Below, in pieces: positions 8,934 through 44,832 of a stretch of 64,000 bases of DNA (position 1 is the first letter of the stretch; every line of letters starts with the position of its first letter). Origin of the DNA: Isurus oxyrinchus (Eukaryota); NCBI GenBank assembly GCA_026770705.1, contig JANJGN010000036.1, positions 4,030,001-4,094,000 on the forward strand. The letters run 5' to 3'. The notes below the pieces were generated by a model. It saw nothing but the letters and a program-made list of their open reading frames with translations. It ran no database searches and had not been told where the DNA came from. The position numbers and the translations under genes are program-made.

Positions 8934-9053
8934 ATTCTCCGCTCCCAAGCATCTGCCGTTTCCTGCTTCCCGGGGGTTTGGCGGCGGGGGCGCTGCTCCT
9001 TCTGGGGATGATCCTTGTGTCTAGGAGAAGGAGCTGCAGGAACCGGCAGACAG
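8934..9053 (+). CDS. Gene A exon: stalk Cys + uncharged transmembrane helix + basic stop-transfer
   Basis: tttttttacAG acceptor, ag|GTAGC donor, 120 bp phase 1/1. DSPLPSICRFLLPGGLAAGALLLLGMILVSRRRSCRNRQT. Conserved in paralogs at ~29-145 and 38279-38376. Confidence 0.88.
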
Positions 9054-9185
9054 GTAGCGATTGTTGGGAGACGCTGTAAATCCGCGGCACTCTCAAACCA
9101 TCCATTTAACAGGTTATTGACACTTTCAGCCAGTTAGTGTGAAATGTAGCCACTTATGCTCAGTTCAAATTTTACTCTCTAACAG

Positions 9186-9244
9186 GCAGCATGAACCTTG
9201 ATGAGGAACTGACATATTCCACAGAGCAACGAGAAAATAAAGAG
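9186..9244 (+). CDS. Gene A cytoplasmic exon 1 (EELTYSTE tyrosine motif)
   Basis: ctctaacAG acceptor, gag|GTAAAA donor, 59 bp phase 1/0. GSMNLDEELTYSTEQRENKE. Homologs at 281-339 and 38498-38556. Confidence 0.82.
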
Positions 9245-9369
9245 GTAAAAGAATGGAATTGTTGTTGCCACCAGCGTCGATAAATTTCACTGAACTTTAA
9301 TTCAAGGTTTAAATTTCATAATTATTGAGATGAATCTAGAAAACTTTGCACCACAGGGTAGCAGAAACT

Positions 9370-9800
9370 AGGCTTCAATTCTTCTCGTGGGAAAGGTTAA
9401 GGGCTGATTGAGCGGGTCAAAATGATAAAAGGGTACGATTGTGTTTATAGAGAGAAACTATTTGCTGTGGTAGCGTGGTGGTAGGATAAATAGTGGAGGC
9501 TGGGGGTCTGGAGTCCAGAACAAGAGGGGAGAACTTTAAAAATAACGCTTGGTCGTTCAGGGGTGATGTCAGGAAGCACTTAGTCACAGAAAGGCAAGTG
9601 GAAATCTGGAGCTCTTTTCTCTCAAAAGCTACTCAGGCTGTGGGATCAATTGGAAATGTCAAAACTGACATTGATAGGTTTTTTTGGGGTATGGGGATTA
9701 AGGATTATGGAACCAAGGTGGGTAGATGGAAGTTATGATACAGACCCGCCATTACCTAATTGAATAGGCTGGATGGGCTGAATGGCCTCCTCCTATCCCT
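9370..9800 (+). mobile_element. CR1 LINE 3' fragment in gene A last intron
   Basis: FRGDVRKH-type ORF2 end and gggctgaatggcctcctcct tail. Shorter remnant of the same insertion in paralogs (~570-680, ~38760-38890). Confidence 0.7.
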
Positions 9801-9853
9801 GTGATGATGGTGTTTGTTATAATAATAGATTCGTTTTTATCCTTTCTCCACAG

Positions 9854-9898
9854 ACACTTTATGCCCGCTTGGCCTTTAAGGAGGATCCCACTCTCTGA
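9854..9898 (+). CDS. Gene A terminal exon with ITIM/ITSM-like motif TLYARL
   Basis: ctttctccacAG acceptor, phase 0. TLYARLAFKEDPTL*. Same length and stop position in two paralogs. Confidence 0.82.
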   Translation, partial: TLYARLAFKEDPTL

Positions 9899-10612
9899 TT
9901 GGAGGGGAAAGAGGGAGAGTGCTCACAGTTTGCTTCCCGAAAATGAGGTGTTGTGGAAAGTTTCCTCTGTTGGGTGTGGAAGACCGAAACTCCAACCGGT
10001 GCAAATTCAGGCGCACACTCAGCGCAAATTTATGATTTTTGCCCACAGTGTGAAATGAATAATATTTTAATGCCCACTATTCCAATGATGAATTATCACC
10101 TGCACTTCCATTCCAGCCTCTCCGGGTTTCTGTTATCTGGTGTACTATGGCACTCTGCTTCTTTATTCAGTATGTCAGCAAGAAATTATTCAAGCAGGTT
10201 TTACAATGTAACTGTGCTCGAGTTAACTACATATTAAAACAGGTTTGAAAACCAATGACAGCTCTTTAATATCAGTTTTTTTTTGTTTATTCAGAGCAGA
10301 TGCGCCCAGGGTATTTCCGAGGCGGATTTACAAGGTCATTTATAGAGTAAATGTAAGCAGGATAGAAGTTAGATTAAGGGCCGACTGGTACTGGATGGGG
10401 ATTTAGGCTGCGTTGATATGAAAGCTGCAGTGTTAGTGGACCGCGCGCCTTCACTGGCTGTGTCCTGGAAGATAATAAGGTTACATTTACTCTTGAAAGA
10501 AGATTATTGGCAATCCATCTGCCCTTTGGTTAATACAATTTAGTGCCTTTTAACGACTACAAACACTGGTTCGAAGGCACTAAAAGGACAAGAGGAGGAA
10601 ATTTGATCCGAG

Positions 10613-11335
10613 ACACTTTATGCCCACTTGGCCTTTAAGGACGTAGTTGCACTGGAGCCGGTTCAGAGGATGTTCATTAGATTGATTCCGGAGATGCACG
10701 GCTTGTCTTCTGAAGAGAGATTAAGCAGCTTAAGCCCATACTCGCTAGATTTTAGAAGGATGAGAGGAGATCAAATTGAGGTAAATAAGATGCTAAAGGG
10801 CATTGACAAAGTAGACGGAGAGCAGATGTTTCTCCTTCTGGGGCATTCCAGAAGTAGAGGCCATAGTTTTAGGCTAAGGGGAGGTAGATTTAAATCACAG
10901 ATGCCTTTCTCAAAGGGTCGTGAATCTGTGGAATTCTCTACCTCAGAGTGCAGTGGATGCCGAGACGCTGAACAAATTTAAGAGGGAGATAGATGGAATC
11001 TTCATTAGTAAAGGGTTGAAAGGTTATGGAGAGAGTGCGGGAAATTGGAGTTGGGGCCGAAATAAGATCAGCCATGATCGTAATGAATGGCGGGGCAGGC
11101 TCGAGGGGCTGAATTGCCTACTCCTGTTCCTAGTTCTTATGTTCTTATGTTCAAAGGAGGATCCCACATGCTCTGTGGAGAGGAAAGTGGGAGAAAGATC
11201 ACAATCTGCTTCCCAAACATGACATGCTGCAGAAACTTTCCTCTGTTGGGCTGGAAGTCCAAAAGTCCAACCGATGCAAATTCAGGTGCATTCTCTGCGC
11301 GATTTTGTGATGTCGCCCAAAGCGTGTACTGAATA
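10613..11335 (+). pseudogene. Duplicated copy of gene A terminal exon + 3'UTR, interrupted by a CR1 insertion
   Basis: acactttatgcccacttggcctttaagga (10613-10641) matches 9854 onward. Homology resumes at 11154 (aaggaggatccc...gcaaattcaggtgca) and follows 9877-10060. Confidence 0.8.
10642..11152 (+). mobile_element. 5'-truncated CR1 LINE with probable AAGGA target-site duplication
   Basis: ORF2 C-terminus (LEPVQRMFIRLIP...RRMRGD), 3' tandem (ttcttatg)n tail, aagga at 10637-10641 and 11154-11158. Confidence 0.88.
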
Positions 11336-43315: not shown

Positions 43316-43611
43316 ATAAAAGAAAATAGCATAATGTTAAAATATGAACTGCTAGAACTCCGCCGTTAAGCCTAACGGAGACATTCTACCCGAAACATTA
43401 CCCTATCCATTTTGTTATCAGATGCTGAAAGGGGCTGGGAATATCTTCTGATTCCAGTGGGGCAACGAGTGGAATTTGACACAAATTCAGATGCTCCAGA
43501 CTTTGACCTGCTCTCTGTTAACCGCGTCAAATATCCAGACTGGGATGCCTTGCAACTTAACCCAAAAAAACAAGTTTTTGCATATTAGTGCAACAGATTC
43601 AAAAAACTCAC

Positions 43612-43643
43612 CTGTATTGCACCCTGATGTGTCCGCTTTGCCT
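43612..43643 (-). CDS. Gene B cytoplasmic micro-exon 3 (EAKRTHQGAIQ)
   Basis: caaacAG acceptor, cag|GTGAGT donor, 32 bp phase 1/0, compatible with the upstream exon. Confidence 0.55.
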
Positions 43644-44089
43644 CTGTTTGATGGTGGTCATCTGTGTTATGAGTGGCTAAGATATGAATTGAAATGTTAT
43701 CCCAGTTTGGCTCATCATTATTTAGATACAGATGCACTATGCGCCAATAATCTGCCAAAGTGCCAATGGCCCCAATACGTCAATGGCCCAGTATGTCACC
43801 ACGTCCCCAATCTGCATTAGCTCCCACAATACGTGAAAGTTCCCTCAATTCTTCAGTGGAGTGAACTTCGCCAAAGGATGGCCAAGCACTGTCCACCCAC
43901 TGTGCCTGGCGTGCACCGTCCATCTGGCATATTACGGCCACTATTATCAACCAGTAATTCGCATTTTATATGGGATTCACAGATAGCCAAGTGATTGGGA
44001 ACATTTTAATGGCGGGAAATGCTCTTATGCATCGTTTCAATCCCGTCCACTTGACATTTAATTAGCACCAACGTTCCAATGCAACTTAC

Positions 44090-44136
44090 CCATTTGTCGC
44101 TCATTCAGGCCATCTCGTTGCCTTCTCTCTCTCAAA
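44090..44136 (-). CDS. Gene B cytoplasmic micro-exon 2 (NLRERRQRDGLNERQM)
   Basis: cagttttAG acceptor, atgg|GTAAGT donor, 47 bp phase 2/1. Confidence 0.6.
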
Positions 44137-44604
44137 CTAAAACTGATTGAAACAAAAATATTAAACATGGGAATCCATTTGNNNNNNNNNNNNNNNNNNN
44201 NNNNNNNNNNNNNNNNNNNNNNNNNNNNNNNNNNNNNNNNNNNNNNNNNNNNNNNNNNNNNNNNNNNNNNNNNNNNNNNNNNNNNNNNNNNNNNNNNNNN
44301 NNNNNNNNNNNNNNNNNNNNNNNNNNNNNNNNNNNNNNNNNNNNNNNNNNNNNNNNNNNNNATGTCCAGAGACTTGTGCAGGAAGTCTGGACTGACACTC
44401 CAGAGTGAGTCTTGTAAATCCTGGCTCAGGTGCCGGAAATATATGAGAAGAAAATTGTCGAGCTGTCTTAGAATCAATCTTAAAAGTTCATGGCAAATGT
44501 GAGCAAATACAATTTGAATCAGTGTTGGGGATGAACTGGGTTACACCCAGTGTTAAATATGGAGAGTGTTCGGGATGCACTTTTCAAGTGGTTCAGTTAC
44601 TCAC

Positions 44605-44635
44605 TTTTCATTGTGCGAATTCTCGCCTCGTTCTT
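44605..44635 (-). CDS. Gene B cytoplasmic micro-exon 1 (EERGENSHNE)
   Basis: ctacttacAG acceptor, aa|GTGAGT donor, 31 bp phase 1/2. Confidence 0.65.
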
Positions 44636-44730
44636 CTGTAAGTAGAAGCTATAATTAGCCATTTAAAACTCCGATAAGTGAATCAGATTAGATAGTTATT
44701 AAAATATCCCTGATAAATATCAATTCTCAC

Positions 44731-44832
44731 CTGATCTGCCGCTTTTAAGAATCCAAATGGAACTAAGGACCAAGAGTAGAACCAGTATCACCAGGACAGG
44801 TATGATAATAGGAAGGGCCGGTCTGCACCATC
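44731..44832 (-). CDS. Gene B exon: stalk Cys + uncharged transmembrane helix
   Basis: ttttgtctctgtAG acceptor, cag|GTGAGA donor, 102 bp phase 1/1. GWCRPALPIIIPVLVILVLLLVLSSIWILKSGRS. Confidence 0.88.

Follow-up and report, generated by a model that had tools for sequence, protein, structure and literature searches.

Two ancient, non-rearranging VJ-C1 chain types in head-to-head gene cassettes of the shark Isurus oxyrinchus: a possible Fab-shaped heterodimeric receptor

The DNA examined here (the window) comprises 64,000 nucleotides of the Isurus oxyrinchus genome and corresponds to C36:4030001-4094000, C36 being contig JANJGN010000036.1. It contains two genes, A and B, which are oriented tail to tail and separated by about 32 kb that hold broken A-like copies. 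Each encodes a V-set and a C1-set domain recognized by Pfam, a stalk with a cysteine, a transmembrane (TM) helix and a tail. An earlier note on this DNA had proposed that the two chains form an invariant, disulfide-linked receptor similar to the antigen-binding fragment (Fab) of antibodies and to the T-cell receptor (TCR). Analysis of the gene cluster around A and B and of their relatives in other vertebrates points to a related reading, to which we assign a probability of roughly 0.6. A and B would be ancient chain types of a non-rearranging VJ-C1 family, arranged in head-to-head cassettes and forming a Fab-shaped, disulfide-linked A:B heterodimer that is likely inhibitory.

Gene A is read from the forward strand. 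Its single VJ exon (5914-6252), which includes a J-like FGNG motif, is followed by the C1 exon (6354-6659), the exon for the stalk and the TM helix (8934-9053), in which the conserved Cys stands two residues ahead of the helix, a first tail exon (9186-9244) and the last coding exon (9854-9898), which carries the motif TLYARL and the stop codon. These exons join in frame at AG/GT sites. In A and B alike, the V region and its G strand are contained in one exon that ends at a GT donor. A scan for recombination signals found none at either V end of the two genes, the 3' end of the VJ exon of A included, and was positive for both immunoglobulin (Ig) light-chain controls; one weak match lies in the upstream intron of gene A. 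The C1 domains of both types have a CxC in place of the usual F-strand Tyr, in gene A as in gene B. The V-C1 intron is 101 bases long in gene A of the window and 105 bases long in many other A-type copies, where it is in frame and free of stops, giving open frames of 257-263 codons (e.g. L031:8488-9231). A 29-base duplicate of the start of the last exon of gene A, followed by repeat-like sequence, is found at 10613-10641 and also at two paralogues.

Gene B is encoded by the reverse strand and is longer than in the gene model of the earlier note, from which the last three tail exons were absent. Its single V exon (46162-46494) has a Pro typical of the light-chain variable domain (VL) in framework region 2 (FR2), an extra CxxxxC pair and a degenerate J motif, LQNG. 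The extra pair is present in 25 of 26 B V exons and probably forms a second intradomain bond. The C1 exon (45742-46071) and the stalk and TM exon with the conserved Cys (44731-44832) follow. Read without splicing, the first tail exon (44605-44635) runs into a stop. Splicing at its GTGAGT donor continues the frame into a predicted second tail exon (44090-44136), which agrees with annotated relatives, a predicted third (43612-43661) and the last coding exon (42021-42089), which holds the motif PFYTSL (PLYASL in its family form) and a stop. A tail-less B chain was therefore rejected. The proposal that A supplies the signalling motif has to be given up as well, since B ends in a Tyr motif of its own (42089-42021). 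Contigs of a related organism aligned over 41500-47500 had no exon-exon joints among the 15 joints listed and are uninformative on splicing. The leader exon of gene B (46765-46821) is 57 bases long, compared to 55 bases in most of the 47 other leaders examined; it has a longer T run (46803-46810), a stop after 8 codons, a weak donor and an in-frame ATG downstream. Some copies on the related-organism contigs are two bases shorter at this T run. The two extra bases may be a homopolymer assembly error, and a short in-frame leader that starts from the next ATG is possible.

The two genes of the window do not form a genomic pair. Alignment to a paralogous cassette on C36 places a deletion junction at 5077-5087, where about 6.1 kb have been lost (window 4916-5077 corresponds to C36 2312899-2313060, and window 5087-8544 to C36 2319164-2322606). 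Lost with it were the greater part of the partner B, the upstream region common to both genes and the leader exon of gene A, for which no match was found anywhere in the window. The last exon of the deleted B partner persists as an orphan encoding PLYASL (3768-3845, reverse strand). A masked run of N at 4775-4915 was considered as the leader of gene A and rejected, as its flanks map to the last intron of B. The place upstream of gene B at which its A partner should lie holds no A gene, just an inverted B-type TM remnant (49201-49670, forward strand). A and B of the window are probably relics of two different cassettes and are non-functional or impaired. Because they are unpaired and damaged at their 5' ends, the question of a heterodimer concerns the family rather than these two copies.

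Searches of the genome with each C1 exon gave at least 150 matches apiece, those listed all lying on C36 between 0.585 and 4.10 Mb. The cluster spans about 3.5 Mb and holds at least 137 C1 exons, 66 of A type and 71 of B type, picked by hand from the match lists, with a divergent A subtype and weak fragments excluded. The term invariant thus applies to each non-rearranging gene and not to a family of at least 137 copies. A B-type C1 exon lies on the opposite strand 4.5-5.8 kb upstream of 29 of the 66 A-type C1 exons, compared to a mean of 4.9 and a maximum of 14 such pairs in 2000 trials of random placement; the band 3-8 kb downstream of A holds an opposite-strand B in 0 of 66 cases. Start codons within one cassette are about 2.3-2.6 kb apart. 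Close inspection covered 925 kb around C1 matches, about a quarter of the cluster, with 20 loci chosen as pairs and the rest mostly apparent singles. A head-to-head B remnant was found at 17 of 18 main-type A copies taken as apparent singles, and a trace of the partner was present overall for 37 of 38 A and 28 of 45 B copies. The head-to-head layout and the partner remnants indicate that the ancestral unit was a divergently transcribed B/A cassette. The cluster contains eleven other C1 matches (C36:1497535-3690533). The two of them that were read (L101 and L103) are Ig light-chain miniclusters, each consisting of a V with a 12-spacer signal, a J and a C. Rearranging Ig light-chain miniclusters are interspersed among the non-rearranging A/B cassettes.

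The stalk Cys is conserved in both chain types. TM exons fetched from this genome carry it in 32 of 40 cases for A and in 34 of 35 for B. A rough automatic test of intactness, which covers leader, V, C1 and TM with the tails outside it, was passed by 19 of 41 A and 13 of 45 B copies; the Cys is present in all 32 of these (19/19 A, 13/13 B), as it is in 27 of the 28 broken copies whose TM exon could be called. An intact A and an intact B lie as a pair at C36 631.9/635.6 kb. In relatives it stands within two alignment columns in 12/12 shark A, 10/10 shark B, 5/5 bony A-like, 9/9 bony B-like and 6/8 third-group sequences. A Cys also precedes the TM helix in 96 of 96 mostly turtle proteins of 270-345 residues, which remained from 115 hits after 19 had been dropped by length. 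Relatives ranging from sharks to turtles keep the residue. The Cys-Arg that had been noticed ahead of both helices is indeed there, with only its Cys being a family feature (Cys-Arg occurs in 4/40 A and 2/35 B TM exons), and the GxxxG of the A helix is found in 3 of 40 A exons. Both are peculiar to individual copies and were rejected as dimer features.

The tails of both types carry a Tyr motif that, judged by its residues, resembles the immunoreceptor tyrosine-based inhibitory or switch motif (ITIM or ITSM): TLYARL in A, and PFYTSL, PLYASL or ILYASL in B. A tail Tyr motif is found in 17 of 19 A relatives; of the 31 B relatives, 20 close with PLYASL, ILYASL or a similar motif. The family probably includes an activating form as well, given a B subtype with an Asn-x-x-Arg TM helix that is described below. 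Sequence variation among paralogues is concentrated in the loops that resemble complementarity-determining regions (CDRs).

The C1 domains of A and B are homologous, as had been claimed, with all of the quoted motifs present and 42 of 101 aligned residues identical. The strong divergence claimed for the remaining parts holds for the TM exon (10/31 identical), while the V domains (36/105) are just moderately more divergent than C1. Relatives occur under automatic names in sharks, rays, sturgeons, gar, bowfin, coelacanth, lungfish, a caecilian, Xenopus, alligator and turtles, and the family is annotated only as 'Ig light chain-like'. Both types were found in Cetorhinus, Heterodontus, Mustelus, Mobula, a caecilian, a sturgeon and turtles. 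In a midpoint-rooted V+C1 tree of 46 selected rows, which has one long branch and includes five bony A-like and nine bony B-like sequences, shark A joins bony A-like with support of 97/89 and shark B joins bony B-like with 97/91. On this tree, the A/B split is older than the split between sharks and bony vertebrates. A third lineage contains bony vertebrates only among these rows (coelacanth, lungfish, gar and bowfin; P0120, P0159, P0174, P0181 and others).

In a tree of C1 domains, a 100/98 branch separates 25 family rows from 20 Ig, TCR-beta-like and major histocompatibility complex (MHC) C1 domains; TCR alpha/delta C domains are outside this tree, the outgroup labels are our own reading of the sequences, and the grouping of A and B within the family is left unresolved by C1 alone. 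The identity between A and B in this comparison is 44%, compared to 20-34% between either type and any outgroup. The tree indicates that A and B arose by an old duplication inside their own family and are not orthologues of TCR alpha and beta.

Pairing of the two types is suggested by one column of FR2 and by a structure prediction. The column is Met or Leu in A (13/13 shark rows, 4/5 bony rows, 29/33 paralogues) and Pro in B (10/11, 6/9 and 25/26, respectively). Matches to PDB sequences align it with Leu45 of the heavy-chain variable domain (VH) for A and with Pro44 of VL for B, two residues named among the conserved VH-VL contacts (PMC8382685). By this alignment, the interface residue is VH-like in A and VL-like in B. 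Antibody chains alone were found among the best 60 PDB matches of each chain. Among A sequences, the J-like FGxG motif is kept in 32 of 33 paralogues and in 12 of 13 shark rows; the J motif of shark B is LQNG-like and without the J-like Phe in 10 of 11 rows, and the Phe is present in 8 of 9 bony B-like rows. In the structure prediction, the A:B pair of Heterodontus (P0007, residues 18-262, with P0024, residues 21-268) scored 0.74, compared to 0.14 for the best of three controls, and its runs agreed in at least 69% of contacts with a partner pLDDT (predicted local distance difference test) of at least 78. The pass mark of the method is reached by 51/78 solved and 2/108 mismatched microbial pairs, and by 39/65 solved and 2/126 mismatched eukaryotic pairs. 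The predicted interface is Fab-like; Phe118 of A touches Pro68 of B, and Cys237 of A and Cys242 of B both appear in the interface lists.

These data suggest the following working scheme. A and B would be expressed together in one cell from the shared upstream region of a cassette. Their V domains and their C1 domains are predicted to pair as in a Fab, which brings both stalk Cys to the interface, where a bond between them would lock the dimer. The locked A:B dimer would reach the surface without CD3 and would bind a ligand through the variable CDR-like loops. As is generally known of ITIM receptors, the two single Tyr motifs brought together by the dimer might then become phosphorylated on engagement, and the paired motifs might recruit a tandem-SH2 phosphatase, SHP-1 or SHP-2.

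Several observations weigh against this scheme. The stalk Cys fits homodimers equally well, and the two stalk Cys are not listed as a mutual contact in the predicted A:B structure. The pass may reflect memory of Fab or TCR structures, antibodies and their close relatives being outside the testing of the fold method; the fold was made without alignments, and a pass does not say which member of the family binds. Since Fabs have been solved in thousands, the pass shows likeness rather than binding, and the model does not rank A:B above A:A or B:B. Conservation at the interface is in no clear excess over other positions (0.76/0.73, 0.80/0.80, 0.71/0.73 and 0.80/0.75), and it was rejected as support for A:B on these four comparisons. 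At position -2, PLYASL departs from the canonical ITIM. At the level of the genome, megabase duplications make many of the A/B pairs non-independent, 17 of 45 B copies are without any A trace, and both members are intact in just 2 of 22 sampled head-to-head pairs. It follows from the last two counts that pairing in cis is not maintained. The disulfide-linked Fab-like receptor of the earlier note is backed by the layout, the conservation and one structure prediction, and homodimers fit the same stalk.

The main rival explanation is that co-regulated A and B act mainly as disulfide-linked homodimers, or mix freely into homo- and heterodimers, each form being inhibitory. We regard it as possible, on the doubtful side. 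Both chains have a Cys and a Tyr motif of their own, the C1 domains are 42% identical and derive from one ancestral gene, and many copies persist without an intact neighbour; the count of 2 intact pairs in 22 is an argument for homodimers or else for pairing that crosses cassettes. Recombinant chains of the chicken protein PRARP were reportedly obtained by Fu et al. in 2019 as monomers and as disulfide-linked homo- or heterodimers, which gives a precedent for an A:B dimer as well as for homodimers. The conserved asymmetry of Met/Leu and Pro in FR2 speaks against homodimers, as does the persistence of the two types side by side since before the split of sharks and bony vertebrates, and the loss of the J-like Phe in shark B would weaken a B:B interface between V domains. 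The rival is also favoured by known homodimers: UrIg2 of sharks is a non-rearranging homodimer (PMC12227049), and light-chain homodimers exist (PMC7916673).

An improbable explanation takes the family for a paired activating/inhibitory system whose chains are linked, by the stalk Cys or an Arg in the TM helix, to another partner such as FcR-gamma, CD3-zeta, a DAP-type adaptor or an unrelated chain, the A:B pair being incidental. The absence of charged TM residues, which is true of A and B of the window, does not extend to a B subtype with an Asn-x-x-Arg TM helix, found in 4 of 35 fetched TM exons and in one more copy of the intactness set (C36:584435-584535, 1725981, 1963176 and 2494859) as well as in relatives (P0031, P0042, P0048 and P0050). 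Charged residues are also present in 7/67 B-like and 2/29 A-like TM windows of the mostly turtle proteins. However, most copies combine an uncharged TM helix with a Tyr tail, 0 of the 5 Asn-x-x-Arg copies sampled in this genome passed the intactness test, and an Arg on B also fits an A:B dimer that recruits an adaptor. It is very improbable that A and B descend as orthologues or direct relics from the ancestors of TCR alpha/beta or of Ig heavy and light chains and inherited the heterodimer from them, since the common V-C1 architecture, the VH/VL-like asymmetry and the rearranging Ig miniclusters within the same cluster are outweighed by the 100/98 branch and by the higher identity of A to B than to any outgroup.

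Tentatively, any intact A might pair with any intact B across cassettes, giving sharks a combinatorial repertoire of Fab-shaped receptors that is independent of RAG and has its diversity in the CDR-like loops, in which the tail or the TM Arg of B would set inhibitory or activating function. The 19 A and 13 B intact chains in the sampled quarter of the cluster would correspond to about 250 possible sites. Such a system might represent an independent second origin of heavy/light-type pairing, in existence since before the shark/bony-vertebrate split.

The closest known systems are the PRARP pair and the VJC1 genes of Xenopus. They comprise two linked non-rearranging VJ gene types of V-C1-TM form outside birds, with a Tyr-based inhibitory or switch motif and relatives in bony fish, amphibians and reptiles. 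The shark A/B family, which shares these features, is likely the shark branch of PRARP/VJC1. Further hallmarks of PRARP/VJC1 are a canonical J-like FGxG segment, a disulfide-linked dimer on the cell surface and expression in lymphocytes. The shark family differs in that sharks are not known to belong to the distribution of PRARP/VJC1, in that at least 137 C1 exons are organized in head-to-head cassettes with Ig light-chain miniclusters between them, and in the loss of the J motif in shark B, the Arg-TM subtype and the lack of an MHC class I match on C36. The best 120 of 257 matches included neither a bird protein nor a record under the name PRARP or VJC1. No paper on the shark A/B cluster was found in the literature searched, with subscription papers and most supplements outside its reach. 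PRARP (Fu et al., 2019, J Immunol 202:1992, PMID 30770416) and VJC1 (Ohta et al., 2019, PMID 31492741) are mentioned in PMC10751288 and PMC11599192, and the VJC1 study is also cited in PMC10210626. A location in or near the MHC, with the species not stated, is given in PMC10751288. A search of the genome for MHC class I alone gave 30 matches, 29 on C21, one on C16 and none on C36, and class I linkage of the cluster was rejected.

The likeness to TCR alpha/beta lies in shape: the layout of V, C1, stalk Cys and TM helix and the predicted V-V and C1-C1 pairing. In contrast to the TCR, the A and B genes lack D and J segments as well as a recombination signal at the V end. The TCR has basic TM residues for CD3 and a short tail, whereas A and B have an uncharged TM helix in most copies, long tails with Tyr motifs and a Cys directly ahead of the TM helix, and their C1 domains form a lineage separate from the Ig, TCR-beta-like and MHC C1 domains of the tree described above.

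Paired receptor clusters of a similar kind include KIR, Ly49 and CD94/NKG2, the last being a lectin-type heterodimer. The NITRs of teleosts are without a C1 domain and are not known to act as two-chain Fab-like receptors. With the shark family, the NITRs (PMC7916673) and the other paired receptor clusters share birth-and-death evolution, germline diversity of V loops and inhibitory as well as probable activating forms. UrIg and UrIg2 of elasmobranchs are likewise shark non-rearranging VJ-C1 genes whose products are disulfide-linked dimers; UrIg2 differs by several C domains and by being a homodimer, and UrIg/UrIg2 are linked to the MHC or the IgH/TCR complex (PMC12227049 and PMC10751288). The A/B family, in contrast, has one C1 domain, a TM helix, Tyr tails and two chain types.

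The remainder of the window contains further debris of the family. On the forward strand are a broken TM exon of a preceding A pseudogene (85-186), a broken A-like V remnant (15250-15750) in which self-alignment shows the C1 exon to be absent compared to the copy at 35-36 kb, and that copy itself, with V and C1 exons interrupted by stops (35429-36234). Inverted B-type TM remnants like that upstream of gene B (49201-49670) occur about 2.5 kb upstream of several single B genes on C36 (near 737.4, 2204.7, 3878.4 and 4098.3 kb), and at least four carry the Arg. Two more orphan last exons of B (51549-51626, reverse strand, and 62942-63007, forward strand) sit in an inverted duplication of 50557-51680 and 62877-63998. 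Elsewhere in the cluster, an A subtype that diverges from the rest, has a longer intron between V and C1 and is without a head-to-head B is found at C36:1693872, near 1926000 and at 2048631, and has relatives in a catshark and rays (P0074 and P0073). Near-identical blocks of C36 recur at spacings of about 0.2, 0.7 and 0.9 Mb (e.g. 2320428 and 3243078), and represent recent segmental duplications or uncollapsed haplotypes. The cluster ends at about 4.106 Mb, with C2H2 zinc-finger-like open reading frames beyond it (C36:4124000-4203000); in its 100 kb flanks, only zinc-finger-like and repeat reading frames were recognized, in both cases by eye.

The A/B family is a conserved, two-type family that never rearranges and is hugely expanded in sharks, and shark and turtle annotations may wrongly count its genes as Ig or TCR chains. 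The origin of heterodimeric receptors built on V-V and C1-C1 pairing, and whether pairing came before or after rearrangement, is an open question for which this family offers a direct test. The C1 tree tempers the claim: A and B would not be an ancestor of the TCR but a sister lineage that shows what a heterodimer preceding RAG could look like.

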